Sequence record: PQ613263
Strand: one strand, 5' to 3'
Length of the DNA stretch: 64,000 nt
From: Shigella phage Moonfish
The notes beneath the pieces were generated by a model. It was not told the DNA's origin. It searched no databases and saw only the letters and a list, made by a program, of their open reading frames with translations. Shown here piece after piece: positions 34,579-62,017 of the stretch (position 1 is the first letter of the stretch; each line of letters starts with the position of its first letter). The translations under genes were made by a program, and so were the position numbers.

Positions 34579-35498
34579 GCGAATGCCTTTTGAATTATTT
34601 GATGAACTTCTTCAGGGGTAGCGTGATTTGGAATCTCAATCTCGTTAGCCCACGTTGGGTAGAACAAGGACAGTTCCCCACCCAAACCAACTTCTGGATG
34701 AGCAATATCAGGATGGTCTTGCCAGTTAACGGCTTCAACCAAATGCTTGTTCGTGTACTGCAAGGTATCCATGTTGTCACGAATCATGAAGTACTGAGCA
34801 TCATGAATGTGAATACTAGGACGAATATCTAACCTGAACTCACTGGCTCTAACTTTACGCATAAACTCCGAGCCAGCACGGTTATTCAGTAGGCACCAGC
34901 TTTGCCCTAAGGCATTACCAGCAGTTCTACCTTCAGCTTCTGCTTCATATGGAGTCTTACATGTCCCACGTAAAACCTGAGCCAGTAAAGGAGTACGCAC
35001 TCTCAAACCAAATGCAGCAGTTACATAACCAGTCTTGGCAGCTTCGTCTAGCTTAGCCTGAACCCAAGCATCACTAACTACATAAAGGTCGTGATAACGT
35101 TTCTCTGTGAGCTTTGCTTTCTCTTCCGAGAAGCCACAGTTCTTCATTAAGCCCATATACGTACCACCATAGGTAAGCAGGAAGGTTGGAGCCTTCGAGT
35201 CACCTCGTAATGATTTGTATTTGTGCTGGATGGAGTTGATGGATTCAACCGTATCTACAATGTCTGGCATCTGCTCACCGAAGTAAGCATACGCACGAAG
35301 ACTGTGCCCATCATAACCATCGGTATATACCTTAAGTTTCTGGGGGTCTTTCGTAGTCAATGCAGAGATACGGTCTTCAAGGCTTGCAAAGTCCAGTCCA
35401 CAAAATATCCAACCTGGGGGTGCTTCGAAGCATTTCTTAATCTTCTTGGCATATTTGGAACCACTAGGGATGGTCTGTAGATTCCTGATGTTCAGCAT
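34575..35498 (-). CDS. DNA polymerase, family A, C-terminal part (downstream exon or fragment)
   Basis: Contains NLQTIP, the second half of the conserved PolA motif RLSSSDPNLQNIP, and a motif-C-like IHIHDAQ. Confidence 0.65.
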   Translation of the reverse strand: MLNIRNLQTIPSGSKYAKKIKKCFEAPPGWIFCGLDFASLEDRISALTTKDPQKLKVYTDGYDGHSLRAYAYFGEQMPDIVDTVESINSIQHKYKSLRGDSKAPTFLLTYGGTYMGLMKNCGFSEEKAKLTEKRYHDLYVVSDAWVQAKLDEAAKTGYVTAAFGLRVRTPLLAQVLRGTCKTPYEAEAEGRTAGNALGQSWCLLNNRAGSEFMRKVRASEFRLDIRPSIHIHDAQYFMIRDNMDTLQYTNKHLVEAVNWQDHPDIAHPEVGLGGELSLFYPTWANEIEIPNHATPEEVHQIIQKAFA

Positions 35499-35561
35499 GG
35501 GTCGTTAATCCATGCCCGTCTTTCGACTGCTGCATATTCCTATGCAGAGCAGACTATATCA

Positions 35562-36095
35562 TCACGCCAGATAGTAAGGCGTGCCATGCGCTTCCACCCA
35601 CTTGAGTGTACTCTCTTTCGAGATAGTCGTTGCACCTTTCAATGCTGCGTGTAACCGAGCGTGGTCAGGAACACTTAGCAATACAAGATTATCAAAGTCG
35701 TTGTTATACGGATTCTCATCACAATGATGCACACACCAGCCTTTTGGTATTTCACTGATATTAAGTGCCTCACATACTACCACATGGTGAGCAAAAACGT
35801 GTTTACTGCCTTTGCGTGCAGTATACCAATCCGGTTTAAGTACCATTAAGTAACCTTTACTGTCGGATACTAAACCTTTGTAGTTATGATGGTCTTTCCC
35901 AAATTTACCTAGCATGGGGTTATTTTCCCCCAGCTTGGAGCGTCGGTAAGACTTTGCATTTCTGTTTTGACGGTATTCTTTACTGTAGTTCTCCATAATA
36001 TATTTAGAGACTTTTTTGTAATTAATACCTAAACGCTTTGATATTTCTGCTTGAGATAGGTCAGTATTCTCGTACAGAGTCTTGATATCCATCAT
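35562..36095 (-). CDS. HNH homing endonuclease inserted in the DNA polymerase gene
   Basis: HNH core HHVVVCEALN...CVHHCDENPYNNDFDNLVLL...DHARLH; own RBS TAGGAGG; lies between the two polymerase pieces. Confidence 0.6.
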   Translation of the reverse strand: MMDIKTLYENTDLSQAEISKRLGINYKKVSKYIMENYSKEYRQNRNAKSYRRSKLGENNPMLGKFGKDHHNYKGLVSDSKGYLMVLKPDWYTARKGSKHVFAHHVVVCEALNISEIPKGWCVHHCDENPYNNDFDNLVLLSVPDHARLHAALKGATTISKESTLKWVEAHGTPYYLA

Positions 36096-36168
36096 GTGCC
36101 TCCTAAGGCAGGTATGGTTGATTTGGCTCAGGATTGCCCGGTCTGGGTTTCCCCTGAATTCACATGGT

Positions 36169-37860
36169 TTAAATAGCCCAATTTATTTTAGGCTCTGAAG
36201 CCGATAACCTGCCGGAGACCGTGCCTCCCAAATTGAGATTACCGAACAGATAGTGCCAGCCATCCGGTCCCGGTTGGGCGTTCCTGAAAGCTGGTATAAA
36301 GCTAGTAATAATCTTATCCACGAGCTTATAGTCGATAAGAGCATTGAGCAGTTCCTTAACATCTTCACTCTGCGTATGTGTACGCAGTGCTTTAATAGTG
36401 TCACCATCAGTAGCTGGTTGCTTGCTCTTAGTAAGACCAAGAACTGGTAAGCCAATAAAATCAAATAACAATTTCTGTAACTGTGGACCGGAGTTAGGAT
36501 TGAACTCGATGTCACAATCAGCCAATGTTACCTGCTTCTTCTTAAGCTTGGTATTCTTATCGTCTACCCATTCCTGACGAAGCATCAGGGTGAAATTCTT
36601 CATGAGCTTAGACTCACGAATAGTTTTCAGAGCCTGGTTCCTGTCAGTTTCCATTTCCTCAGCTACTTGGTTAACGGTTTCCATATTCATTGGCATACCG
36701 GTTAACTGCATCTGAATAATGTCTTCACAGGCAGGTTTAAAGATGTTGTTATAAACATCCAGTTGGTCATCAGCAATGAGAGTATCCCAGTGCTTCTCGT
36801 AGGTGTACCACGTACACAGTCCATCGATTAGGTTGTAGCGTAACAATTGCTCATTAGGAATAAGACAAATGTCTTTGATATCGTCTTGAGCATAGTTACC
36901 GGCATACTCCTGAGCCTGGTCTTTCAGACTAAGGTGATTACCAGCACAACTGTTAGTAGCCAGATAAGTGATTAACTTAGTGCAGTCCCAGTTACGTAGC
37001 ATGACGTTCATGCCATACAGTAGACCTTCTGTATCAATCAGGTTATCCATGAATAACTGATAGATAAGTACATACACGTCATAGCTAATGTTGTGATACA
37101 TCTGCCGTTGGGTGTACTTAATGAAGAACTCACGTAACAGGTTACGGACAATATCATTTCTGTTGATACGCCCATAAGGTGCTTCAGTAGCTCCCTTAAT
37201 TGGCTCGTAGTCCACATTAAAAGCTATGCCTTGTGTCTTACTCCAACAGAATGTAATCGTTCCTATACCGGCGTTATAGTGCTTTAAACCGAATGATTCG
37301 ATGTCTATAGCCAATGGCTTATTCATCTCCAGCAACTGGTCTAGCCAGGCTTTAATCTCTTCGGGGGTATCTGGGTAGGCCTCAAACTCAATGATTCCCT
37401 GACCTGGTTCAGCATACTGTCCACGTATGTGGTTAAGTAGTGCATCCATACCCTGAGCAATTTTAGCTCTCACTACAGGTGGGTCATAAAAGACCTGTCT
37501 GTAGTTAGGCGTATAGATAACCTTCTGCTTACCCCATACTGAGTCACAAACGTAGCCGAGGTTGGCCTCTGCTTTAGCTTCTTTAGTCAGTATTTTAAAG
37601 TAATCAGAATCGGTACAGATGACGTACTGAGTTTCTGCATCATCCAGTACTTGTTGCAGTTCCTGCTGTATGAACTCCTTAATCTCCTTTGCAGGAGTCT
37701 TCTTTTTGCCGGGGGCAGAGTGAAGTTCAAGGAAGATAAAATCTTCCATGCTTAGGTCATATGGCAGCAGGTAGGTTTTAATCATCTCCTCCCTTCGGAT
37801 TTGATGACCGAGGATAGCAATAGGATATTTACCCGTATCCTGAGAGGTGATGTAACGCAT
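36169..37860 (-). CDS. DNA polymerase, family A, N-terminal part (3'-5' exonuclease and start of the polymerase domain)
   Basis: Exo I motif LAIDIESFG; ORF ends inside SGRLSASEP, the first half of the PolA motif. Confidence 0.7.
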   Translation of the reverse strand: MRYITSQDTGKYPIAILGHQIRREEMIKTYLLPYDLSMEDFIFLELHSAPGKKKTPAKEIKEFIQQELQQVLDDAETQYVICTDSDYFKILTKEAKAEANLGYVCDSVWGKQKVIYTPNYRQVFYDPPVVRAKIAQGMDALLNHIRGQYAEPGQGIIEFEAYPDTPEEIKAWLDQLLEMNKPLAIDIESFGLKHYNAGIGTITFCWSKTQGIAFNVDYEPIKGATEAPYGRINRNDIVRNLLREFFIKYTQRQMYHNISYDVYVLIYQLFMDNLIDTEGLLYGMNVMLRNWDCTKLITYLATNSCAGNHLSLKDQAQEYAGNYAQDDIKDICLIPNEQLLRYNLIDGLCTWYTYEKHWDTLIADDQLDVYNNIFKPACEDIIQMQLTGMPMNMETVNQVAEEMETDRNQALKTIRESKLMKNFTLMLRQEWVDDKNTKLKKKQVTLADCDIEFNPNSGPQLQKLLFDFIGLPVLGLTKSKQPATDGDTIKALRTHTQSEDVKELLNALIDYKLVDKIITSFIPAFRNAQPGPDGWHYLFGNLNLGGTVSGRLSASEPKINWAI

Positions 37861-48069: not shown

Positions 48070-48576
48070 TTATTTACTGCTTCTCGCAGCTACTGGTTTG
48101 TTTTCCTGGTTATTGTACTTGCCTGTGTATGTGGCAGGTTCTTGAACCAGATGAAATAATACTTGAGCTATCCCGGAACCAGCCGGGATATGTAATTTCT
48201 TACGTCCGTGATAGACCAGTTCAAGGGTAAGATACCCTTTCCATCCTGGTTCAATCACGGTATTGAACACTGATAATGCACGTCTTGCCCATGTAGACTT
48301 ATCGTGAACGATTGCTACACAGGATGGGGACATGTTGAACTTCTCAATGGCTGAAGCCAATGCGAACTTACCGAGATGGTGTGATACCTGTTTTCCATCA
48401 ATGATTTTCACCATTGGAATCAACCCAAATAAGCGATAGAAGGTAATATCTTGTTTGATACGAATATCATAACCAGCTTCACCCAACCCATAGCTTACAC
48501 CATGCTCGGATACCTTACGGTCTGGGACATCCAGTAATTGAGAGGAACGATATAGGGAATTACCGTTAACAACCAT
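48070..48576 (-). CDS. dcd: dCTP deaminase / dUTPase-superfamily protein
   Basis: Motif VIEPGWKGYLTLEL resembles the dCTP deaminase signature; 168 aa. Confidence 0.5.
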   Translation of the reverse strand: MVVNGNSLYRSSQLLDVPDRKVSEHGVSYGLGEAGYDIRIKQDITFYRLFGLIPMVKIIDGKQVSHHLGKFALASAIEKFNMSPSCVAIVHDKSTWARRALSVFNTVIEPGWKGYLTLELVYHGRKKLHIPAGSGIAQVLFHLVQEPATYTGKYNNQENKPVAARSSK

Positions 48577-49751
48577 TATTTCATTCCTTTAGGGATATGA
48601 ACTACCTCCCCAAAAGGTACGGTAGCACTAGGATTATTCAGAACACACCATATGATAGGGATATCAAATGGTAATTCCTCCATTGGATGAACATACATAT
48701 CGGAGAATATGATTGCAGCGGTTGGCTTATTCTTAATAATCCAATCCCGTACTGGCACAAGACTTGTACCACCACGGCCCGTAATCTTAATCTCTTCAAA
48801 AGTATCTTCTTCAGTGATGTCTATTTCTTCTTGGATAATATCGTCGAAGGTAATTAAGGACATCTTCTTAGGATTGAACTGGCTCTTAACGTAGGCAACC
48901 TCAGAGTTAAAACGCAGAGAGTCAGCACTACTAATAGAACCAGATACATCCTCAAAGTAAGCTAAGTGTCGTAAGCGTCCTTCATCATCTTCCAGGGATG
49001 GTAGATAGATGTCAGTGAAACGACGGTTAGGTCTGGCCCACGTATAACGTGAGTCATCAATGTCAGTGAAGAAATCCATCAAGACTTCCTGCCATGGAAC
49101 TACTGGCTTAAGGAATTGGGTAATAACCTCTTCCATATGACCAGCACCCTTACCAGGCATTGTTCCACCAGCCATCTTCTGGCTTTGCATCGCACGTACT
49201 ACGTTGTTGACAACAGCACCCTGGGACTGCCCCGGAGTGGGAGCTTTCATGTCGCCAGCAAGACCTGCTCCAGCACCCCCTGACGGCTGCTGCCTTTTCT
49301 GAGGGTTCTTCATCAGGTCATCGTAGATGTCTTCTTCAACCCATCCTTTGTATTGAGGGTCTTTGCAAATACCTTCGTCGATACCAGTGAACTTGTAACC
49401 ATCTTCCTCTAACTGAAGATTAATGAAGTGGTCACATGCCTGGTTCCAGACTTCTGGGTCACGGCTTCCACATCGGATGCCATGCAGATATGCCACATGC
49501 CAGAGTTCGTGCATTAATACGGTTTCTCTGGCATCTGGACACATCCAGACAAAGAAATCGGGATTGAAATGGAGTTCTATCCCATCAGTACATGCAGTGG
49601 GACAATCCTCACGTCTCCATGAGAATTTAAGGCTACACAGCAATGAACCAAAAAACGCTGCGCTGCGTCCAAGAAATGCGTTGGCTTGTATTCTATCGTA
49701 CTCCCTCATTAACTGTTCATCAGTGAGGGTATGTGAAGGTATGTTATTCAT
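48576..49751 (-). CDS. VWA-domain protein with N-terminal metallopeptidase-like domain (partner of the MoxR-like ATPase)
   Basis: HExxH in LMHELWHVAYLH; MIDAS-like FEDVSGSIS; 391 aa. Confidence 0.45.
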   Translation of the reverse strand: MNNIPSHTLTDEQLMREYDRIQANAFLGRSAAFFGSLLCSLKFSWRREDCPTACTDGIELHFNPDFFVWMCPDARETVLMHELWHVAYLHGIRCGSRDPEVWNQACDHFINLQLEEDGYKFTGIDEGICKDPQYKGWVEEDIYDDLMKNPQKRQQPSGGAGAGLAGDMKAPTPGQSQGAVVNNVVRAMQSQKMAGGTMPGKGAGHMEEVITQFLKPVVPWQEVLMDFFTDIDDSRYTWARPNRRFTDIYLPSLEDDEGRLRHLAYFEDVSGSISSADSLRFNSEVAYVKSQFNPKKMSLITFDDIIQEEIDITEEDTFEEIKITGRGGTSLVPVRDWIIKNKPTAAIIFSDMYVHPMEELPFDIPIIWCVLNNPSATVPFGEVVHIPKGMK

Positions 49752-49845
49752 TAAGATGCTCCATGATTAGGGTGATAGCCATACAGTTTTTCAGCTGCTT
49801 TTCTAGCGTCTATGGCATCCTGCTTTTCAGCAAAAGTGCCTAAAC

Positions 49846-50199
49846 TTACCAGATGGAATCTCGTTTATGCCAGTACACCCCAGTTACTCCACTGGAATTA
49901 GTTACACGTTTCTTTTGGTTTCTACTGTTAGTTTTGCTGTCCACCAACCTAAAGTTACTTAATAGATTGTTAACCCTATTATGGTCTATGTGGTCAACCT
50001 GCATTCCCTTTGGTATAGGTCCATTGTGCATTTCCCATATGACACGATGCACTTTGTAGCTTTTGCACTTATAGTTAAAACACAGATACCCATCACCATT
50101 TAAAGAGCCAACCCTGCCCCCAGCAATGGCCCTTGAGGACAATGTAACTTTCCAGAATAGCTCACCATTTTCATAAACGAGTATGTCATTCCAGTTCAT
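49846..50199 (-). CDS. HNH homing endonuclease (free-standing)
   Basis: HRVIWEMHNGPIPKGMQVDHIDHNRVNNLLSNFRLV; wedged between the AAA and VWA genes. Confidence 0.55.
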   Translation of the reverse strand: MNWNDILVYENGELFWKVTLSSRAIAGGRVGSLNGDGYLCFNYKCKSYKVHRVIWEMHNGPIPKGMQVDHIDHNRVNNLLSNFRLVDSKTNSRNQKKRVTNSSGVTGVYWHKRDSIW

Positions 50200-50202
50200 A
50201 GA

Positions 50203-52095: not shown

Positions 52096-52677
52096 TTACT
52101 CTTCAACAGTATCAGCGTAGTAGCCTACAGCCAGCAATGAGGTATCTTCTACCGTGGTTCCATTAGCATCAGTAACAATCACTTTATAAGTACCAGCAGA
52201 AGCAGCTGTTACGTTACTAAGGGTCAATGTTGCAGTAGCAGCAGATGCGTTATCGCCAGAATCAATATCAGCGAATACTGCACCATCAGTGTCTGCTTTG
52301 AATTGCCACTTATAAGTAAATGGTGCTTTACCACCTGCTACATCAATATGCCAGTTAATATCTTCACCTTCGATGGCAGAGATTACACGAGGCAGTTTGG
52401 TAGCAATAGTCAGTCGTGGAGTAGCTTTCATATCAATAGAGATAGACTGCATATCCACGATGTTGTCAGGCCAGAAGCCTTCTTCAGCAGGGTTTTTAGC
52501 AGATCGTTTATACAACAGGTCACGTACACCGTGATAAATAACCAAGCTATCAGGGTAAGTGGCATCTGGATGTTCAAAAGTACCTACTTCCACGGAACCA
52601 CCTGGAACACTGCCACCTGAATCAAGCACGGTAGCAACGTTGGTAGTTTTATTAAACGCAATCTTTAGGGTTGGCAT
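52096..52677 (-). CDS. Ig-like-domain protein (possibly N4 gp17-like capsid decoration protein)
   Basis: C-terminal TATLTLSNVTAASAGTYKVIVTDANGTTVEDTS resembles bacterial Ig-like domains; followed by a strong terminator. Confidence 0.35.
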   Translation of the reverse strand: MPTLKIAFNKTTNVATVLDSGGSVPGGSVEVGTFEHPDATYPDSLVIYHGVRDLLYKRSAKNPAEEGFWPDNIVDMQSISIDMKATPRLTIATKLPRVISAIEGEDINWHIDVAGGKAPFTYKWQFKADTDGAVFADIDSGDNASAATATLTLSNVTAASAGTYKVIVTDANGTTVEDTSLLAVGYYADTVEE

Positions 52678-52994: not shown

Positions 52995-53222
52995 TTAACT
53001 TAATGCATAATCCGTTTCAAGAATGTCCTGCCAGAGGCTGTCATCCAGCTTACCCGCAGAGAACTCTTGTCCCAGTACCTGAGATAGGATGAAGCCCAGC
53101 AAGTCACTCTTAGCAATGTCAGATAGAATCTGATTGTACTGACGACGTAGGTCATTACCATAGTTAGGATGACAACGAAAACCATTAGTTAAACGAGTCG
53201 TTAGCTCGCCCTTACCTTCCAT
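52995..53222 (-). CDS. RNA polymerase II large subunit, C-terminal segment (downstream exon or fragment)
   Basis: Ends WQDILETDYALS, resembling the T7 RNAP C-terminus LRDILESDFAFA; overlaps the HNH ORF stop. Confidence 0.5.
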   Translation of the reverse strand: MEGKGELTTRLTNGFRCHPNYGNDLRRQYNQILSDIAKSDLLGFILSQVLGQEFSAGKLDDSLWQDILETDYALS

Positions 53223-53856
53223 GATTAACATGAAAGCCATATGTAGCATCTGCTTGTTTACGAGCAAGCATTGCCTCCTCAAGTGTGTCGTACGTACCCA
53301 GACCGATCTGTTTGCGATTGACTGTGATGTGTGCCTGAAATCTACCAGAAGGCAGTATTCTCACACCGTTCACTTTGCTTGAAGTATTACTAGATAAACT
53401 CATATTCATCTGGTTCTGTCTGCTGGTTACATTTCTCAAATTAGACCAACGATTGTCGTTTCTAGTATGATTGATGTGGTCCACCTGGTTAGGTGTTTCC
53501 CCAGTTTCCATTATCCAGATTATTCGATGTAGTAAGTACTCTTTGCGGCCCAGGCTAACGGATAGATACCCTTCTTTGTGAGGATACCCCACAATTGTTC
53601 CGGCTAACCCACTGGCAGAGTCATAACGATGAGTCACTAGCCCACTATCCCTGTCATACCTTAAAACCTTCTGCAAAGATTCTTGGGTAATATTACCCAA
53701 GTTTATTATTAGGTTTTTACAGGTAGAGCATAGATGACCTATTGGACTCTTTCTAGCATCATAGAAGTTACAAACAAACTCATTAGAGCATTGCTTGCAA
53801 CTACAGATAGCTGTGTACTTACCAGTTTTACGTAATATTTGAGAGTTATCTAACAT
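53212..53856 (-). CDS. HNH-AP2 homing endonuclease inserted in the RNA polymerase II large-subunit gene
   Basis: HNH motif HRIIWIMETGETPNQVDHINHTRNDNRWSNL plus AP2-like NGVRILPSGRFQAHITVNRKQIGLGTYDTLEEA; own RBS. Confidence 0.6.
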   Translation of the reverse strand: MLDNSQILRKTGKYTAICSCKQCSNEFVCNFYDARKSPIGHLCSTCKNLIINLGNITQESLQKVLRYDRDSGLVTHRYDSASGLAGTIVGYPHKEGYLSVSLGRKEYLLHRIIWIMETGETPNQVDHINHTRNDNRWSNLRNVTSRQNQMNMSLSSNTSSKVNGVRILPSGRFQAHITVNRKQIGLGTYDTLEEAMLARKQADATYGFHVNHGR

Positions 53857-54148
53857 ATGGATTCCTTAGTAATTTTGCATACAATTTCAGATTGTATCCT
53901 AACCAAGGAAGTAAGTCTCCAATTTTCACTGGAGTATCGGACTATATCATCACCCACTAATCAGTGGGGCAAGGCGCTTGGGTGGTCACTTGACTCACCT
54001 ACTCTACTCACATACGAAATGCTTTCGATAGTCTCTGAACCTTCCCTCATAGAGGGCTTGGCTGCTGATTGGCATATCCATAGGACTTAGCTTTCCAGCA
54101 ATTCACCTTGTTTTCGACACGGATTACTCCGTGAAGGATCATTTATGT

Positions 54149-55180
54149 TTAATCATGTACAGTCAATACAGGGAATGGCTTCTTAGGTAAAGTGTCCAGC
54201 ATGTCTGCTACTACCTGACGGTCAACCATAGCAATAGTGCCTGGGTCGAGATAGTCGATAATAGACATAGATAAGAATCCAGACTTCTCGTAGTGTTCCC
54301 ACAAGGTCTGTACCATTTCCATGTTACCTTCAATCTCCCCATACTCTGCTGGGCCTGTGTCGCAGAGTTCACGAACAGCAGCAACCAGGTTAGCATCGAA
54401 GTTACAACGACGCAGCATCTCGCGTACCACCATCCCATCAATAGAGTGGGTGATGTTAGCAGAGAGCATACGAGTCTTCTCTTCAGTACCCTGAACCATG
54501 CGGGTAATGTCGAATGGTTTACCTAAGAAGTTAACAGTCTGTACTTCTGGAACCATGACCTTAATGACGGCATGGAAGTTGTCAGACAATACCCATACGT
54601 AACGGTTAGCATCCGGGTTACCACATTGCAGTAAGAACTTGTTCAATGCCCAAGGCCCACTAGCAACAGTTTCCATTACATTCTCAAAAGTCTTGAGACG
54701 GATACCCTCACCGAATACTTCTTTAGGCTTAGCTTCTGAACCGTAGAATGCAGTCATAACTGCCTGCTTAGTGTCACTACGCTTAATACGAGATGCTTCA
54801 CCAAGGATGTCCAACATCTTGTGATAGATAACTGTATAAGCATCACGACGTAATGGCTTACCGTTTTCACCCATGTAGTTAACTACGTTACACAGTTCAG
54901 CAGCAGAACGGTCACCAGTCAGGCAAGCCAGTAACTGCAAGCCTGATGATGTAGCATCCAGAGCTACGGCATAGCCAATAGGCTTACCGGCTTTCATATC
55001 TTTCCATGCGTTTACACCTGCATAGAACAATGCGGATTCTTCAGCTTCATCTACCAGATTAAGCAGGTTAGCTTCGTTTTCATCGAACCAGCTAATACGT
55101 TCATCCCATGTTTTCTTATCCAGACCCATGTTATTCGCAATATCAATCTTTAAATATTCTTTCGCTGTGAAAAGCTGCAT
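54149..55180 (-). CDS. T7-like single-subunit RNA polymerase, N4 RNAP II large subunit (gp16-like), N-terminal segment ending at motif C
   Basis: Motif A ALDATSSGLQ (T7 DGSCSGIQ), motif B RSDTKQAVMTAFYGSE (T7 RSVTKRSVMTLAYGSK); ORF stops right after VHD (T7 motif C IHDSFG). Confidence 0.7.
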   Translation of the reverse strand: MQLFTAKEYLKIDIANNMGLDKKTWDERISWFDENEANLLNLVDEAEESALFYAGVNAWKDMKAGKPIGYAVALDATSSGLQLLACLTGDRSAAELCNVVNYMGENGKPLRRDAYTVIYHKMLDILGEASRIKRSDTKQAVMTAFYGSEAKPKEVFGEGIRLKTFENVMETVASGPWALNKFLLQCGNPDANRYVWVLSDNFHAVIKVMVPEVQTVNFLGKPFDITRMVQGTEEKTRMLSANITHSIDGMVVREMLRRCNFDANLVAAVRELCDTGPAEYGEIEGNMEMVQTLWEHYEKSGFLSMSIIDYLDPGTIAMVDRQVVADMLDTLPKKPFPVLTVHD

Positions 55181-55181
55181 C

Positions 55182-55763
55182 TTAAGCTCCTAGTTTCCAC
55201 GTATAGCCATATGCTTGTGCATATGTACCAATAATTGATTGTTTAATGTTTGATGGTATTCCATTTACACTGCGTGCTGCTGCACTCAGTGAATGGAATG
55301 TCTGGATGTAAATACCATCCAGTGTGTATTGCTCTACAGGGATAGCAGATTTGGTATTAATACCGTTGATTGCATCAGAGTAATACCTTCTTACATTGGC
55401 GTTTACCGTAACAACACGAATGTTATCCAGTGAGTAACCTTTATAGTCATCCAGCCTGTCAAGGCTTGGCTTCAGGTTGGTTGGGTAATCCTCTATTACC
55501 CATTTATCATACAGAGTGTGAAACTCTTTCTTTGATAACACCCATTGTTCTAGTTCCTCTTTAGTAAAAGTAACAGGATTAAACCCTTTCTTCTTGGTTC
55601 TGCTTACGCAACCGGAGTACATTTGATTAATGACTCCTTGTTTGGAATGGATAAAACGTTTCACACAGTCTTTACAGTCTGCTCTTACACCCTGTTTACC
55701 TGTGGACTGTTTATTGAACATGTCCAGAGGCAAGTTCTGCTTACATACTGAACATGTCTTCAT
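55182..55763 (-). CDS. Putative homing-endonuclease-like DNA-binding protein (Cys-rich N-terminus, NUMOD-like HTH C-terminus)
   Basis: CSVCKQ...CKDC at N-terminus; C-terminal FHSLSAAARSVNGIPSNIKQSIIG...GYTWK; stop/start within 1-3 nt of both neighbours. Confidence 0.35.
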   Translation of the reverse strand: MKTCSVCKQNLPLDMFNKQSTGKQGVRADCKDCVKRFIHSKQGVINQMYSGCVSRTKKKGFNPVTFTKEELEQWVLSKKEFHTLYDKWVIEDYPTNLKPSLDRLDDYKGYSLDNIRVVTVNANVRRYYSDAINGINTKSAIPVEQYTLDGIYIQTFHSLSAAARSVNGIPSNIKQSIIGTYAQAYGYTWKLGA

Positions 55764-56636: not shown

Positions 56637-57017
56637 CTAAAAGGTTCCCCAGTAGATATAGTCATCTCCCAGGATAGGTTTCCAGGCTTCGTCAAACATG
56701 ACGTTGCCTGTAGCATTTGCAAACATAGGGGCAATGTCCTTGTCTTCATAACCAGCCAGTCCACAACCAATGCGTGTTACTTTAAAGTCCCACTCTGGGT
56801 GTGCTGCTGCATACAGGATGAATGCTGCTACAAATTTCTCAATATCCTCTAAGGACATAGTCTTGATTGACTGGTTTTTGGTTGGGATTGCATAGCTGCA
56901 ACCATAATGGCCTACGCCCATACCCCAACGAGCACCGTGCTTCTTATATGCAACTTTCGCTGCACCAGCACCGTGACGGCCTGCTAAATTACTACCGAAT
57001 ACTAATATCTCTTTCAT
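56637..57017 (-). CDS. Hypothetical protein (Gly-rich nucleotide-binding-like motifs)
   Basis: 126 aa; VFGSNLAGRHGAGAAK and IGCGLAG. Confidence 0.3.
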   Translation of the reverse strand: MKEILVFGSNLAGRHGAGAAKVAYKKHGARWGMGVGHYGCSYAIPTKNQSIKTMSLEDIEKFVAAFILYAAAHPEWDFKVTRIGCGLAGYEDKDIAPMFANATGNVMFDEAWKPILGDDYIYWGTF

Positions 57018-57021
57018 GCTA

Positions 57022-57342
57022 TTAATCCTTTGGTTTAAGAACTTGGAATGCGAACACAGGACGTTTACTACGCCACTGGTTCATAGCTAGTTCACTAGCA
57101 GGAGAGCCATCATGTAAGTCATATATGAATGTAATCATATACTCTGGTTCCTCTGGGAAGTTCTCTGTAGAGAACGGTAGACCTGCTTCTTTTAATACAG
57201 GAACCAGTGGTGATTCAGCTGCACAATAAATAATGAACTTTTCGCTGAATGCTTTACTGGTCTGAGATACGTAATCAATATTACGCATCATCTTATCGAC
57301 ATCAGTAAATGTATTATCATGTACTACTACGATGTTATTCAC
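57022..57342 (-). CDS. Hypothetical protein
   Basis: 106-aa ORF. Confidence 0.3.
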   Translation of the reverse strand: MNNIVVVHDNTFTDVDKMMRNIDYVSQTSKAFSEKFIIYCAAESPLVPVLKEAGLPFSTENFPEEPEYMITFIYDLHDGSPASELAMNQWRSKRPVFAFQVLKPKD

Positions 57343-57596
57343 TCTACTTTCTCCAGGGTTAGATATACTGTATTCATTTGAGGCACATAATCACAAAAAC
57401 CAATTTCCTCTTGTCTGCCACTAGACTTCCAAATACAGTTTTCAGTTAGTTTAGGCTTTCTACTAAATCCAATTAGTGAGGCATTCTTACTCTTCTGAGG
57501 ACGAGGTAATAAGGCTACATATTTAACCCATAATGGGACTTCAATAGTTTGTCCCATATAGTTAAATGATTTAGTTACAGGGAATGTAATAATCAC
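57339..57596 (-). CDS. Hypothetical protein
   Basis: 85-aa ORF. Confidence 0.3.
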   Translation of the reverse strand: MIITFPVTKSFNYMGQTIEVPLWVKYVALLPRPQKSKNASLIGFSRKPKLTENCIWKSSGRQEEIGFCDYVPQMNTVYLTLEKVE

Positions 57597-57956
57597 TTAG
57601 TACCTCACCACTATTACTTTCTTATTATTTAACCGAGTCATGATATCAATCATGTGTTTGGTTCCTTTTGACTTACCATCCCAGAATGCTACAAGAGTAT
57701 CTGCGAAATTAGCCATTTCAGTATTACGTACATAACCTGCACGCTTACCTAATCTGTCCCAGTCAGCAGGAAATTCATGTATTATCATCCCTGCCTCTTT
57801 CCAGAGATTATATGCTGTAATGTCTGCTCCTCTAGCCATACCACATACAAGTTCAGGTGAATCAGTTATTTCACCAGATTCTACTAGCTTCTGTAATTCA
57901 GCAATCATGCGATTAGTGTCAATGAAGTCACGTCCACCAGCTACAATTAGTCTCAT
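57597..57956 (-). CDS. SLOG-family protein (DUF2493/YspA-like)
   Basis: Motifs IVAGGRDF, CGMARGADI, FPADWDRLGKRAGYVRN, VAFWDGKSKGT. Confidence 0.5.
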   Translation of the reverse strand: MRLIVAGGRDFIDTNRMIAELQKLVESGEITDSPELVCGMARGADITAYNLWKEAGMIIHEFPADWDRLGKRAGYVRNTEMANFADTLVAFWDGKSKGTKHMIDIMTRLNNKKVIVVRY

Positions 57957-58174
57957 TTCTGATACCCCTGAATATAGTTAATACGGCGAATACGTTGAGT
58001 AGATGCCTTAACAGCCATCTGATGATTTTCTTCTTTGTGCTGATTTTCCAGCACCTTAGCCCATTCTTCCTGGTTCCGTTGTTTCTGTAATATACGACTA
58101 CAACGTTTATGATTGGCAACTCCACGTCCTTTCTTACAGACTGGGCATATACCATAATCGTTTGAGTACATCAT
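57953..58174 (-). CDS. Small zinc-ribbon protein
   Basis: 73 aa with CPVCKK...HKRC. Confidence 0.3.
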   Translation of the reverse strand: MMYSNDYGICPVCKKGRGVANHKRCSRILQKQRNQEEWAKVLENQHKEENHQMAVKASTQRIRRINYIQGYQK

Positions 58175-58479
58175 TGGCTTAAAGCCTCCATTAATATTTT
58201 ACGAATAACGTTAACATCAGATTCAGTACCAATTAAACCAACAGGTTTCTTTGTACTATCTGTGACAAAGGATGCAATCCTTTCCATCTCTGCTGTAATT
58301 AATTTGTCACCACTAATAAGACGATTACGAAGGTAAGCCTCATAAGCTACCTCTATATCTTCTACTGTGGTTCTTTCATTACGAGTGAATGGATTACTTA
58401 ATGGGAAGGGTAAATGTACCCGTATATTCCTGTCAGCTACCTTAGCTAAGTGAGGGAGTATACATACTATTTCATTCAA
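58171..58479 (-). CDS. Hypothetical protein
   Basis: 102-aa ORF. Confidence 0.3.
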   Translation of the reverse strand: MNEIVCILPHLAKVADRNIRVHLPFPLSNPFTRNERTTVEDIEVAYEAYLRNRLISGDKLITAEMERIASFVTDSTKKPVGLIGTESDVNVIRKILMEALSQ

Positions 58480-58520
58480 GATTCTTTCTCCTATTTAAAT
58501 ACATATCTAAACTATTCAAG

Positions 58521-58557
58521 AATAAAAAATAGGAGCCTCCTATTGGAGGACTCCTTA
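58521..58557 (-). terminator. Rho-independent terminator
   Basis: Hairpin aggagcctcc-tatt-ggaggactcct with A-run on +. Confidence 0.45.
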
Positions 58558-58848
58558 CTATTTGATACATGGGTGATTGAAGGTAACAATCTTACGTACT
58601 GGTTCAGATGTCTGTTGCTTAGCAGCCAGACGCCCTTTCATCTTTTGTACGTCAGCTTTGGTTCCCATGATTAATGACTTACGCATGTTTAGTACTCCAC
58701 ATAAAGTTATAAGGTTTACCGTTACGTACAATTCTTACAGCCATTTGATAACCATTGATTTGTACAACACCATAGTGTCTCTTTTGGTCACCAGTCTGGT
58801 TCCGTCTGAAGATACACTCTTCAATAGCATCATTGATATTAGTGAACA

Positions 58849-59037
58849 TCATTGGTTCCTCTTTGCAAACTCTTCTGCTTGTTGCTTGTAGTACTGAGTC
58901 ATTGCTTTCTTGTGTTTAACACTAGCAATGAGACACTCGATAGTAACGAATGGCAGCTTAGCAATAAGCAGCCACTTTTGACGTAACTTCCAGCCTAGAA
59001 AGTAGAAGATTACACAGAAAGCGATGAAGTCTAACAT
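58849..59037 (-). CDS. Small membrane protein
   Basis: 62 aa with TM segment. Confidence 0.3.
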   Translation of the reverse strand: MLDFIAFCVIFYFLGWKLRQKWLLIAKLPFVTIECLIASVKHKKAMTQYYKQQAEEFAKRNQ

Positions 59038-59139
59038 GGTTATTTCCTCTTCTAAGATAGCTCTAATGGGATAGGTTTTAATTTTAGACCCCCTTCGTCG
59101 AAAGAGGCGTAAAAGTTAAACTTAGCTTATCGCATAGTT

Positions 59140-59168
59140 AAAATAAAAGGACTCCCCGAAGGGAGTCC
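59140..59168 (-). terminator. Rho-independent terminator
   Basis: Hairpin ggactccc-cgaa-gggagtcc with preceding A-run on +. Confidence 0.55.
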
Positions 59169-59177
59169 AGTTGTTGA

Positions 59178-59564
59178 TTAGAAAGTCAGTTTACGAGCAT
59201 ATTTATTCTCATCGGCAGGAATAGATTCTTCCTGAGCCTTCACGCGTCTTAACTGAACTTGCAGGTTAATGATACCTTCTTCACCTGGTTCCAGGTTCTG
59301 AGCATATTCGATTAACTGTTCCAGCAAATCGTTCTGTGCACAACGCATAGCACGGAAGTCAGCATTGCTGCTATTAGTAGGCAGTGCTTCCTGAGTATCC
59401 AGTGGAATACCAGTAGGCAGAGAGATGAATTTCTCATCATCAGAGCCTTCATTAGCAACATAACCAATGTTCAGCCAGAACTGAGCCTTAGGCTTAGCAG
59501 CTTTAGTTTCAGCAGTGGTAGCAGCAACGTTAGATTGACCGAAAGTGAATTTTTGAATAGACAT
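59178..59564 (-). CDS. Early protein, unknown function (start at internal ATG with GGAGAG RBS)
   Basis: Track ORF 59178..59663; the ATG at about 59564 has an RBS; first gene downstream of a hairpin promoter. Confidence 0.35.
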
Positions 59565-59674
59565 TTTGTACTCTCCAGATAAATGATTGTTTGATTGATG
59601 GGTTTGTCTGTCGGTGACTAAACCCAAGAAAAGACTTAGGATTTCAATGATTAGTGGATGCATTTACGTCCTCA

Positions 59675-59689
59675 AGCTGCGGAGCAGCT
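59675..59689 (-). promoter_or_regulatory. Hairpin promoter candidate (N4 vRNAP-type), core agctGCGGAGCagct
   Basis: Identical to the 56617 hairpin; intergenic. Confidence 0.55.
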
Positions 59690-59693
59690 ACTT

Positions 59694-59897
59694 TCAGACC
59701 GACTGCAATACTGACTTATCGTGAGGTAAGTCCTCAAGGGAGTTGAATACTTCTTCTGTGCTATCCAATCGGATACCAATGGATGGATCTTCAACCATTA
59801 CACAGTTGTAATCAGTTGATTCATTTACTTTTTGTAACTCAAATCCACCATGTACAAAGAACTTTTCACCATCTTTAACGTCAACAAATGTAGCCAT
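59694..59897 (-). CDS. Hypothetical early protein
   Basis: 67-aa ORF 34 nt downstream of a hairpin promoter. Confidence 0.3.
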   Translation of the reverse strand: MATFVDVKDGEKFFVHGGFELQKVNESTDYNCVMVEDPSIGIRLDSTEEVFNSLEDLPHDKSVLQSV

Positions 59898-59930
59898 TTT
59901 ATTACTCCAGTAGTTATAGGGATACCCAAT

Positions 59931-59945
59931 AGAAGCGGAGCTTCT
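59931..59945 (-). promoter_or_regulatory. Hairpin promoter candidate (N4 vRNAP-type), core agaaGCGGAGCttct
   Basis: 6-bp stem, GGA loop; intergenic. Confidence 0.55.
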
Positions 59946-59951
59946 TGGTTT

Positions 59952-60305
59952 TTAAGACAAGCGTTTAAGTAATTCTGCCTTAGCAGACTCATACTCTTGT
60001 TTAGCTTTAGTGAGGTCAATGGTTGACTCACCCCAGTGAAGGATATCTATTGTATAGGTTGTAAGAACATCGACTGCATCTTCGAAGCGAGCCAGTAGTT
60101 CTTCCTTATCAGGACCATCGAATTGTTCCCATTGCCATACATAACCGGATAACTTAACTGTTTCCCCTTTCTCAAAGTAAGGTTCTTCTCCAAATAGGAA
60201 AGTAGAATCTTCAGTTAATCGGATATGTTCTCCTTCCAATTCTCCTACGATAATTGTTCCAATAGGGATGTCAGAATTACCCCTGATACAACGGAATTTA
60301 GTCAT
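59952..60305 (-). CDS. Hypothetical early protein
   Basis: 117-aa ORF. Confidence 0.3.
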   Translation of the reverse strand: MTKFRCIRGNSDIPIGTIIVGELEGEHIRLTEDSTFLFGEEPYFEKGETVKLSGYVWQWEQFDGPDKEELLARFEDAVDVLTTYTIDILHWGESTIDLTKAKQEYESAKAELLKRLS

Positions 60306-60361
60306 GATTTTCTATCCTAGAAGTAGATAGTTATCTACTTAGTCTATCTATCTAATGTTTA

Positions 60362-60388
60362 TAAAAGGAGACTCCGAAGAGCCTCCAT
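60362..60388 (-). terminator. Weak terminator-like hairpin
   Basis: Imperfect hairpin ggagactc-cgaa-gagcctcc with A-run on +. Confidence 0.3.
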
Positions 60389-60398
60389 ATTTGATTTA

Positions 60399-60719
60399 CT
60401 ATTTAGTCAGGATGTCGATTACTTTTGAATATTCTGCGTTATAGATACGAGCGTTCTCTGAATCTTTGCAGAATTCTTCGATACTTTTCTTACGCATAGT
60501 CTCGTTCATAGCTGTTTCTTCAGCTAATTTGTTTACGAATGTATGCATTTCTAATTTAGTACGGATGGCTTGTTTCTCTGCCATAGTAGATACATATGAA
60601 TTAAGCATACCTACTGCTTTAGTAGCTGTGCCGAATGTATCTGCAACAGTAGTAGCAGCTGAGTTAACAGTACCCAGTAAAGTTCCTGCGGTCATACGTA
60701 CAGTAGCGGTAGTAGTCAT
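60399..60719 (-). CDS. Hypothetical early protein (coiled-coil)
   Basis: 106-aa ORF 43 nt downstream of a hairpin promoter. Confidence 0.3.
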   Translation of the reverse strand: MTTTATVRMTAGTLLGTVNSAATTVADTFGTATKAVGMLNSYVSTMAEKQAIRTKLEMHTFVNKLAEETAMNETMRKKSIEEFCKDSENARIYNAEYSKVIDILTK

Positions 60720-60761
60720 GATGATAGCTCCAATAGTTGATGATAGGACGACATGTCCATA

Positions 60762-60776
60762 ACATGCGGAGCATGT
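60762..60776 (-). promoter_or_regulatory. Hairpin promoter candidate (N4 vRNAP-type), core acatGCGGAGCatgt
   Basis: 6-bp stem, GGA loop; in a 267-nt intergenic region. Confidence 0.5.
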
Positions 60777-60986
60777 GTAACGTGTAAGGTGGGGTAGGGT
60801 AGTGGCTACAGGGTCAACATACCGGGGGGGATGGTTGAGTGTAAGGGTGTAGCCCCAGCCACACCACTAAAGCTGAACATAGCTATGATGAAATCCCTAA
60901 GAAAAAATATGAGAAGTACTTTCCCTATGCGACTACTGCTAGACATAGCTATCAACATTTTGACATGCAAAAATATCATAGCTATC

Positions 60987-61313
60987 TCACTTATAAGCAG
61001 CTAAATAGGAGGGAGCATACACCAGGAATATGGATTGAAGGGTATCGCTCGATGTGAAGGTAAGGGTGTACTTATCAGTGTTCACATGCCAGGGGGAATG
61101 TACATATGTAGACCAGGGTAATTCCTTTCCTGGTTCCTGAAGTTTTACAATAACTTTCCTGCCTAGTATTAGAGCCAGACCTTTCACTTCATGAAGGGTT
61201 TGCTCATCTGGTACTAGGATAATAGGAGTGAGTCTACCTGGTTCGAGGTCTTGTAAGGTTGTATGGGCAGTGGGATTGGGTCCACCAGCATAACCTATCT
61301 TAGTGAGTTTCAT
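60987..61313 (-). CDS. Small early protein, paralog family member A
   Basis: Shares IILVPDEQTLHEVKGL and SPWHVNTDKYTLTF with 62014..62298. Confidence 0.4.
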   Translation of the reverse strand: MKLTKIGYAGGPNPTAHTTLQDLEPGRLTPIILVPDEQTLHEVKGLALILGRKVIVKLQEPGKELPWSTYVHSPWHVNTDKYTLTFTSSDTLQSIFLVYAPSYLAAYK

Positions 61314-61316
61314 TTG

Positions 61317-61694
61317 TTATACCCCGTAATCTATCTTAACCAGTCTACCTTTGTAGTAACCAAAGTTCTTAGGGAAGGCATCATACTCAAAGAACTCTTT
61401 ACCGAGTGGCTGTGGTTCATTGGCTGCATCTAAGTATAGCTTCTCTAACTCTACCCAGAATAAACCAGTATGTTTCACAGGCTTAGCCCTGTGCATGATT
61501 AGAACCAGACCAAATCTATTAGAGTACTTGATTGGGCATAGGAACTTATTGTTGTAATCCTTCCACTGTCCTTCAGTTAGATTGCTTAACATACCTTGTA
61601 CGAAGTGTTTCCATGTAGAGAGGATAGGGAACTTAATTGCGTAATGACGAGTGAGTATTACCCATCTGGTTCCACCGGAGCGTATTAGTTTCAT
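61317..61694 (-). CDS. Hypothetical early protein
   Basis: 125-aa ORF. Confidence 0.3.
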   Translation of the reverse strand: MKLIRSGGTRWVILTRHYAIKFPILSTWKHFVQGMLSNLTEGQWKDYNNKFLCPIKYSNRFGLVLIMHRAKPVKHTGLFWVELEKLYLDAANEPQPLGKEFFEYDAFPKNFGYYKGRLVKIDYGV

Positions 61695-62017
61695 TTGGTA
61701 GCCTTGAATTGTGGTAACTGATTAAGAAGACTATCCATGTAGTAGCAGTATGCCTCGGAGGATTCGTCATTAATTGGAAGACCAATGAATCCAAAGGTAT
61801 AAATGCAGAAGTGATTAAGCTCATGAACCAAGGTTATCTTACTATCATCAAATATACCCATAAGCACAAAGTTGTCCGCTATGTAGCAGGTTTTTCCTTT
61901 AAGGGTTGTTTCCTTTTCTGGTTCAGTACCACGGTATGCTTTATGCTTCTTAGAGAATGTAGCCCAGTCATATACTACTTCTAACTGTACTGGATAGGGG
62001 GATGTGTTTAGTTTCAT
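61691..62017 (-). CDS. Hypothetical early protein
   Basis: 108-aa ORF. Confidence 0.3.
   Translation of the reverse strand: MKLNTSPYPVQLEVVYDWATFSKKHKAYRGTEPEKETTLKGKTCYIADNFVLMGIFDDSKITLVHELNHFCIYTFGFIGLPINDESSEAYCYYMDSLLNQLPQFKATK

Follow-up and report, generated by a model that had tools for sequence, protein, structure and literature searches.

Four probable homing-endonuclease elements in Shigella phage Moonfish: two predicted group I introns and two free-standing cassettes

Why does a stretch of 64,000 nucleotides (nt) from Shigella phage Moonfish (record PQ613263; the whole stretch is called the window here) hold four genes that resemble homing-endonuclease genes (HEGs), one of them wedged between gp24 and gp25? 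The window is that of a G7C-like, N4-family coliphage of the genus Gamaleyavirus (Schitoviridae, Enquatrovirinae). It is ~91% identical in nucleotide sequence to Escherichia phage vB_EcoP_G7C (hereafter G7C), its close matches are all gamaleyaviruses with genomes of ~70-76 kb, and its minus-strand genes follow the order of G7C and N4, from gp15 and gp16 (small and large subunits of RNA polymerase II, RNAP2) and gp17 (a Hoc-like decoration protein) through gp24 (AAA ATPase), gp25 (VWA/metallopeptidase), a dCTP deaminase and a helicase to gp39, the DNA polymerase. The four genes very probably mark selfish elements of homing-endonuclease type, comprising two mobile group I introns and two free-standing cassettes. 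Domain content, intron boundaries, restoration of reading frames, covarying ribozyme structure and patchy distribution are the observations behind this reading.

A first-pass annotation made from the letters of the window had placed the open reading frames (ORFs) at 35562..36095, 49846..50199, 53212..53856 and 55182..55763, and all four were recovered at exactly these coordinates on the minus strand. Far from all four lacking an endonuclease domain on profile search, three clearly contain Pfam HNH_3 above its cutoff of 24.8 bits (35562..36095, E 1.3e-7, 31.5 bits, with additional N-terminal helix-turn-helix matches; 49846..50199, E 8.8e-19, 67.3 bits; 53212..53856, E 6e-15, 55.0 bits), and PHROG endonuclease families match all four (E 3e-28 to 2e-56). 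Translations of the three HNH_3 members keep the canonical His and the metal-ligand Asn/His, in VDHINH..N..N (53212), VDHIDHN..N..N (49846) and VHHCDEN..N..H (35562). For 53212..53856 an AP2 domain had also been proposed; HNH_3 is secure there, but AP2 (E 1.3e-4, 22.6 bits) stays under its cutoff of 33.3 bits, and similar sub-threshold matches recur in the homologues from ZQ2, MIF8 and G7C gp24.1 (E 1e-4 to 6.5e-7). The fourth ORF, 55182..55763, earns the name endonuclease-like from its PHROG 'endonuclease VII' family (3e-28); Pfam gives NUMOD1 only (E 1.8e-6), so that profile search yields no HNH domain, and the canonical His is lacking. The domain scan of 82 window ORFs returned no further HNH_3 member, no other endonuclease family was found among 25 of the 39 families matched in it, and phmmer with the four proteins against all six-frame window ORFs gave no further paralogue.

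The contexts also came out as proposed: the 35562 ORF lies between two DNA_pol_A fragments, the 49846 ORF between the genes for AAA ATPase gp24 and VWA protein gp25, and the 53212 ORF downstream of a truncated RNA_pol ORF. The 55182 ORF stands between the RNAP2 subunit genes gp15 and gp16. The descriptions 'in the DNA polymerase' and 'in RNAP II' were thus right, but the intron-encoded nature of those two ORFs had gone unrecognised. Around gp16 the features are the following.

54151..55180, minus strand: exon 1 of the large RNAP2 subunit; RNA_pol, E 3e-12; matches phrog_2051 positions 1-339 of 401; collinear with G7C gp16
54150..53183, minus strand: predicted group I intron, IA2-like, 968 nt, in the gp16 homologue at catalytic motif C (TVHD|CFRCH)
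53212..53856, minus strand: putative intron-encoded HNH-AP2 endonuclease gene, 214 amino acids (aa), in the loop of P9.1
52995..53182, minus strand: exon 2 of the large RNAP2 subunit, 62 codons; CFRCHPNYGNDLRR..YALS*, identical to the C-terminus of G7C gp16

Sequence and predicted structure identify the insertion at 54150..53183 as a group I intron. A match to Rfam RF00028 that covers the whole model (positions 1-253 of 253; 91 bits against a cutoff of 50, E 5e-22) runs from 54160 to 53917 on the minus strand, directly upstream of the HNH-AP2 ORF. Read without splicing, the RNA_pol ORF on its upstream side (54149-55180) stops ~62 residues short of the end of gp16. The predicted 5' splice site lies after ..GUACAUGAUU, whose U pairs with G in P1, and reads ..GAUU|AAACAUAAAUGAUC; the intron ends in ..CUAAUG|GUUUU with a terminal G, and AAAU with GUUU makes a 4-bp P10. 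The split falls after the first nucleotide of a Cys codon (HD|CF). Joining 55180..54151 to 53182..52995 yields a coding sequence (CDS) of 1218 nt and 405 aa, the length of G7C gp16, with which it is collinear through TVHD|CFRCHPNYG (junction TVHDCFRCHPNYG); from this length and collinearity the intron is placed in catalytic motif C of a T7-like polymerase. The ligated exons are predicted to read ..GTACATGATT|GTTTTCGT...

The ORF of this intron sits downstream of P9, in a loop closed by P9.1, where CUUACUUCC (53915-53907), just after P9, pairs with GGAAGGUAAG (53220-53211) at the ORF stop codon. Next come P9.2, a hairpin whose loop is UAACGA, and a tail of 9 nt up to the terminal G. Constructs of the window and MIF8 introns from which the ORF was deleted form the same P9/P9.1/P9.2 hairpins from different sequences (z -4.5 and -6.2). 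In the core, covariation across eight related introns leaves 81.9% of cells paired, against 33-41% in slid controls, and 28 of 67 pairs are compensatory, a result that none of 500 shuffles reaches. The IA2-type intron of T4 sunY (nrdD) may be comparable in layout, since its I-TevII ORF occupies a peripheral helix 3' of P9 and not P6; it differs in its host gene and in its enzyme, I-TevII being of the GIY-YIG type as opposed to HNH-AP2.

Rfam-positive cores of the RNAP2 intron also occur in MIF8, an Erwinia phage of the genus Efbeekayvirus, and in ZQ2 (94 and 92 bits). The 214-aa ORF equals that of the ZQ2 intron in length and is ~92% identical to it in DNA, and its product is 45% identical to that of the MIF8 intron ORF. 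The MIF8 copy (position ~2990 of the stretch examined, corresponding to 54150 in the window) is apparently 3 nt out of register, at HDAF|GCH. Both records list the pieces of gp16 as separate genes with no intron annotated; the intron is unannotated in the public records examined, no description of a motif-C gp16 intron was found in the literature, and the element is apparently undescribed but conventional. Beyond these genomes, a junction 19-mer recovered one genuine window-type junction in a metagenome collection (an ENA metagenome contig) together with five chance matches, an IMG/VR protein-seeded scan for more copies gave one distant HNH relative only, and a search with a conserved core 25-mer found four introns, all in unrelated genes. 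The G7C-like horse phages N4G2 and Sz33, of the same genus, contain a spliced, HEG-containing intron in the same gene (bioRxiv 10.1101/542787). Its junction, in contrast, falls in the peptide QAVMTAFYGSEAK, ~190 codons upstream of the HD|CF site, and it is ~800 bp long without an Rfam hit, whereas the window intron has 968 nt and scores 91 bits.

Three side observations concern this locus. A segment of gp16 (CDS nt 780-990, ~54191-54400 on the minus strand, 40-250 nt upstream of the intron site) is hypervariable: its identity to G7C is ~50%, where the remainder of the gene reaches ~93%, and ZQ2 differs here as well. It may be a trace of past recombination. As a co-conversion tract shared by genomes with the RNAP2 intron it was rejected, for it differs among the window, ZQ2 and G7C alike. 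A local hairpin at 53845-53920 on the minus strand (UUCCUUGGU with ACUAAGGAA, z -2.2) would hide the Shine-Dalgarno sequence of the intron ORF and competes with the long-range P9.1 for its UUCC bases. Such sequestration could act as a switch between translation and splicing; given the weak z of -2.2 and no comparative support, the idea is not relied on. Finally, DNA polymerase genes of Felixounavirus (three stretches, ~1125-1460) are interrupted by an intron of ~230 nt that has no ORF (Rfam 62-64 bits) and whose core is 73-79% identical to that of the window RNAP2 intron, and the polymerase gene is closely followed by a separate HNH gene.

The DNA polymerase gene is divided in a similar manner.

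36190..37860, minus strand: DNA polymerase exon 1; DNA_pol_A and phrog_17; 93.7% nt identity to G7C gp39 nt 1-1673
36189..35484, minus strand: predicted polA group I intron, IA2-like, 706 nt, in the gp39 homologue between Pro and Asn of SASEP|NLQTIP
35562..36095, minus strand: putative intron-encoded HNH endonuclease gene, 177 aa; N-terminal helix-turn-helix, C-terminal HNH; in the P6 loop
34575..35483, minus strand: DNA polymerase exon 2; DNA_pol_A, E 9e-21; aligns with G7C gp39 nt 1672-2580

This insertion, too, is identified by its sequence features as a group I intron, one of the characterised Pf-WMP3/phiL7 IA2 family. Compared with the intronless gene of G7C, its junction is at gp39 nt 1671/1672, and excision of the 706 nt gives a gp39 CDS of 2580 nt, the G7C length. 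In P1, GAGCCU pairs with GGGCU and leaves U.G at the splice site; the 5' boundary is GAGCCU|AAAAUAAAUUGGGCU, the 3' boundary ..CAUCAGG|AAUCUACAG with a terminal G, and the predicted ligated exons read ..GAGCCT|AATCTACAG... For covariation the ORF was removed and eight copies were aligned (the window, PhAPEC5, Shigella phage B2, and homologues from Acinetobacter, Providencia, Pseudomonas, Dickeya and Xanthomonas phages, together spanning Schitoviridae and Autographiviridae) against a hand-drawn P1-P9.2 structure including P7.1 and P7.2. The resulting fold has 59 pairs in 12 helices with 98.5% of cells paired (slid controls 29-44%), and 25 of the 59 pairs are compensatory, with 0 of 500 shuffles as good. 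The intron ORF is preceded by an AGGAGG Shine-Dalgarno sequence before its ATG, and its 3' end overlaps the ribozyme core from P7 to P8. Its product matches phrog_7545 (3.8e-57) and is 59% identical to gp45 of phiL7; PMC3428280 reports no protein other than this gp45 as highly similar to I-PfoP3I, a characterised nicking enzyme.

The closest studied system is the polA intron of Pf-WMP3, shown to splice both in vivo and in vitro and to encode I-PfoP3I (PMC3428280). It splits the same Pro|Asn residues of ..P|N(L/M)Q.., and shares with the window element the absence of P2, the presence of P7.1/P7.2, and an ORF in P6 with a C-terminal HNH. SPO1, SP82 and Bastille have introns at this site too, which is position 674 in E. 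coli numbering (PMC3428280), and their I-HmuI, I-HmuII and I-BasI are likewise encoded by HNH ORFs of IA2 introns in family-A DNA polymerase genes; the host gene in the window differs in being a Schitoviridae polymerase, not a T7-like or SPO1-like one. The intron of phiL7 lies two codons downstream of the Pf-WMP3 site (PMC3428280), and it and several Autographiviridae copies stand 6 nt downstream of the window site (NL|Q) with a retargeted internal guide sequence. As an observation in its own right, polA introns thus occur in two registers 6 nt apart, P|N (36189 in the window) and NL|Q, and the guide reads GGGCU in the first and GAGGUU in the second. Nearer to hand, PhAPEC5 and PhAPEC7 (KF192075, KF562340) share this element and its position, with 96% identity across all 706 nt, in exons that are ~90% identical. 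The PhAPEC5 record describes it as 'DNAP split by an intron' with an 'HNH endonuclease inducing intron mobility', although the annotated length is 672 bp as against the 706 nt derived here.

The two remaining elements stand between genes.

49752..50202, minus strand: free-standing, degenerate HNH-AP2 homing-endonuclease cassette, a 451-nt insert between gp24 and gp25
49846..50199, minus strand: truncated HEG ORF, 117 aa; HNH_3 intact, AP2 cut off after the first strand
49752..49845, minus strand: out-of-frame remnant of the AP2 C-terminus, ..LGTFAEKQDAIDARKAAEKLYGYHPNHGAS*, from frame-0 translation and alignment with Bp4 and G7C
55182..55763, minus strand: endonuclease-like gene, 193 aa, homologue of G7C gp15.1, between gp15 and gp16

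At gp24/gp25, G7C has gp24.1, a protein of 158 aa with HNH_3 and AP2, at the same site; the two inserts are 67% identical between nearly identical flanks. The closest copies, in Bp4, PD38 and Uz-1, reach 80.4% (flanks 92%), and compared with them the window copy is short of 31 nt, deleted between two TCTGGTA direct repeats. This deletion creates the stop codon at 49846 and throws the AP2 C-terminus out of frame; the stop of the AP2 remnant overlaps the start of gp25 (TAATG). The Bp4 copy has an independent frameshift. The ORF at 49846..50199 was therefore correctly recognised as homing-endonuclease-like by virtue of its HNH_3, but this copy is truncated and probably inactive, a decaying HEG that is probably an immobile remnant. 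G7C gp15.1 and gp24.1 are intergenic cassettes at sites identical to those in the window and with a patchy distribution, the difference at gp24.1 being that the window copy is truncated and so much diverged; the seg and mob genes of T4 are likewise free-standing HEGs between conserved phage genes.

The 193-aa protein encoded between gp15 and gp16 combines a Zn ribbon, a His-Me-finger-like core (I-HmuI/PacI-like) and a NUMOD1/I-HmuI-like DNA-binding domain. Its family has the invariant motif PSxDR..Y..N..N, with Arg at the position of the HNH_3 catalytic His, and a sequence search against PDB chains gave noise only (E > 0.4). A related motif was seen elsewhere: the ORF of the polA insert in phage ST4 (944-1600 of the ST4 stretch examined) has no Pfam match and contains SIDRIDAYKGYSPDN..N, and its 'DR..YKGY..N' is the His-less motif of the gp15.1-like family. 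The recurrence suggests that phage endonucleases of this His-Me-like type, with Arg for His, form a wider family.

Mobile elements would be expected to come and go among relatives, and variation in presence between strains had been forecast for these loci. It was seen at every one of them when 1-kb 'empty-site' queries for all four loci were run against ~41 distinct Gamaleyavirus genomes.

polA site, same 706-nt intron: PhAPEC5 and PhAPEC7 only
polA site, other inserts: 843 nt, 68 nt downstream, in ST4, PGN829.1, phiG17 and U1G; ~700 nt, ~160 nt downstream, in SP5M
polA site, remaining genomes: uninterrupted, except PD205, which could not be resolved
RNAP2 motif-C site: same intron in ZQ2 only; no intron-sized insert in the other listed genomes
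gp24/gp25 site: ~480-nt cassette of the same family in 9 of 41 (67-80% identical); ~870-nt insert in 1 of 41; empty in 31 of 41, with an intergenic distance of 4-7 nt
gp15/gp16 site: 584-nt element in four genomes (G7C, PGN829.1, ST4 and Bas96), 82-84% identical; in others at least eight further insert sizes, including other HNH and 'endonuclease VII' genes

Two is the largest number of the four elements seen in any one database genome. Both introns are closer to their nearest copies than the surrounding exons are (polA against PhAPEC5, 96.2% and 90.4%; RNAP2 against ZQ2, 94.2% and 83.4%), which indicates recent lateral spread, and both free-standing cassettes show the opposite pattern, their flanks being closer than the cassettes themselves to the nearest copies. 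The claim of a high load of mobile elements for a phage of this size is true in a relative sense only, since N4 has none and Vibrio phage phiJA1 has four HNH genes, three of them splitting genes (PMC3670811). Related reports describe a 'G7C-type' endonuclease between RNAP1 and RNAP2 as well as homing endonucleases within RNAP2 (PMC5418858), a td intron in the N4-like Vibrio phage pVa5 (PMC5746245), and 22 variable loci in G7C-like phages, many of them HEG-related (bioRxiv 10.1101/542787).

The polymerase gene of the genus has been invaded at three sites within ~170 nt (G7C gp39 nt 1671, 1739 and ~1830). The ST4-type insert (869-1711) and the SP5M-type insert (~959-1660 of the stretches examined) carry HEG-like ORFs, and neither gave an Rfam intron match; one or the other may be the non-splicing insertion of phage 10Gb (bioRxiv 10.1101/542787). 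Separately, PHROG 1314 gives the name 'HNH endonuclease' to the VWA/metallopeptidase gp25 (48576-49751, minus strand), where Pfam finds DUF2201_N and DUF2201 (E 3e-55). The same name is attached to gp25 in many RefSeq Gamaleyavirus records, even those without an inserted endonuclease, so that apparent HEG counts in the genus are inflated.

How might such elements persist? Both introns interrupt essential genes at catalytic, highly conserved motifs, and each ribozyme would excise itself from the mRNA so that the host enzyme is still made, with the HNH ORF looped out of a peripheral helix (P6 in the polA intron, P9.1 in the RNAP2 intron). On co-infection with an intron-less relative, the endonuclease would make a nick or a cut in the empty allele, close to where the intron inserts, and recombinational repair from the intron-bearing genome would copy the intron in, the process called homing. 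The free-standing cassettes would spread by the same cut-and-repair route with no need of splicing. Splicing, endonuclease activity, target sites and homing are predictions from sequence throughout.

Several findings weigh against this reading. The contiguous polA intron scores 33 bits in Rfam (38 for the PhAPEC5 copy), under the cutoff of 50, with a separate local match of 14 bits covering P4-P6; the low score is attributed to the 534-nt ORF that splits P6 and the core. Every AP2 match is under the Pfam gathering score, and a comparison of the window with ZQ2 revealed no clear co-conversion tract common to intron-bearing genomes. Arg replaces the canonical His general base in 26 of 26 aligned gp15.1-like homologues, which makes the nuclease activity of that protein uncertain, and the 82-84% identity of its gene to the nearest copies compares with ~90% in the flanks. 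Taken together, the low identity and the His-less core indicate that the gp15.1-like gene may be long-resident or domesticated and not actively homing. The main caveat for the polA element comes from phage 10Gb, also G7C-like, where a HEG-bearing insertion of ~800 bp in g39 is unspliced and the polymerase is made in two pieces (bioRxiv 10.1101/542787); that insertion may or may not be the element of the window, and 10Gb is not among the database records listed for the polA site.

These points feed three alternatives. The first, that the elements are fixed, inactive relics carried as neutral passengers, is unlikely. Decay is plain at gp24/gp25, in the truncated window copy and the separately frameshifted copy of Bp4, and the divergence of both free-standing cassettes would suit it as well. 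Three of the four ORFs are nevertheless full length, all three HNH_3 ORFs, the truncated one included, keep the canonical active-site motifs, and the introns are markedly closer than the exons to copies in otherwise more divergent genomes, as expected after recent transfer.

Somewhat less probable again is the proposal that the polA insertion, the RNAP2 insertion or both remain unspliced, as free-standing HEG insertions that leave genes in pieces whose products assemble into a functional enzyme. The example of 10Gb g39 is explicit, with no splice product in reverse-transcription PCR, two polypeptides, and an internal Shine-Dalgarno sequence and ATG for the C-terminal piece (bioRxiv 10.1101/542787). 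RNAP2 of the N4 type is already a two-piece T7-like polymerase (PMC5418858), and the ST4 (843 nt) and SP5M (~700 nt) insertions show that polA inserts in the genus can be devoid of an Rfam-recognised intron. The window itself offers a possible start for such a piece, the in-frame ATG at 35498 (13 nt before the proposed polA 3' splice site), but it has no convincing Shine-Dalgarno sequence and lies inside P9.2. Both window insertions possess complete covarying cores, the U.G pair, the terminal G and P10, and their removal gives exactly the intron-less CDS. A cut in HD|CF would part the catalytic Asp of RNAP2 from the motif residues that follow, and at the Pro|Asn position of polA the Pf-WMP3 IA2 intron is self-splicing (PMC3428280).

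That the HNH proteins are ordinary, immobile phage nucleases for terminase-associated packaging or host DNA degradation is highly improbable: HNH proteins are described as widespread in phage packaging machines (Kala et al. 2014, as cited in PMC5746245) and the gp15.1-like family is conserved in length, with homologues on metagenomic contigs of which several are ~64-74 kb, but none of the four genes adjoins the terminase genes, all four are missing from most close relatives, which are viable phages, as they are from N4 (PMC3670811), two lie inside introns of essential genes, and one is truncated without apparent consequence.

Within the preferred reading of four homing-endonuclease elements, a more specific idea about the RNAP2 intron can be offered tentatively. 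Intron endonucleases in the polymerase genes of jumbo phages have been proposed to play a role in interference. The motif-C intron with its P9.1-looped HNH-AP2 ORF might likewise represent an undescribed mobile lineage among Schitoviridae genera that may exclude co-infecting rivals. Because it targets the enzyme of middle-gene transcription in co-infecting relatives, it could possibly act as a weapon of interference or marker exclusion.

Other features of the window lie apart from the four elements. A tRNA gene at 26821-26894 on the minus strand (Rfam 63.8 bits) marks the switch between plus- and minus-strand gene blocks. The Hoc-like Ig-domain decoration protein (52096-52677, minus strand) has 193 aa against 273 aa in G7C gp17. 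In the early region, the ORF at 57597-57956 on the minus strand has a YAcAr (YspA/cpYpsA-related SLOG) domain (E 4.6e-9). One window protein matches Pfam Tad2-like (Thoeris anti-defence 2; E 6e-22), its ORF not being among the ten early ORFs tested at 56637-62017, and others match Rap1a immunity and HATPase_c_3.

The elements described here are an ordinary kind of phage parasite with a standard homing mechanism, and they leave the current understanding of how such elements work unchanged. What the analysis adds is the exact boundaries and structures of the introns, the recognition of two ORFs as intron-encoded, the truncated relic and the apparently undescribed RNAP2 motif-C intron. In practical terms, gp16 and gp39 of Moonfish, and the corresponding genes of ZQ2 and MIF8, call for annotation as genes with introns and joined exons, and not as fragments beside a 'hypothetical protein'. 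The list of intron targets gains a phage RNA polymerase of the single-subunit type, interrupted exactly at the catalytic HD motif. All stages of the HEG life cycle appear side by side in 64 kb, from recently spread introns through an older resident cassette to a decaying copy. Such elements make poor phylogenetic markers, and, as gamaleyaviruses are used in therapeutic and typing collections, gene conversion and mosaicism are to be expected at these sites when infections are mixed.

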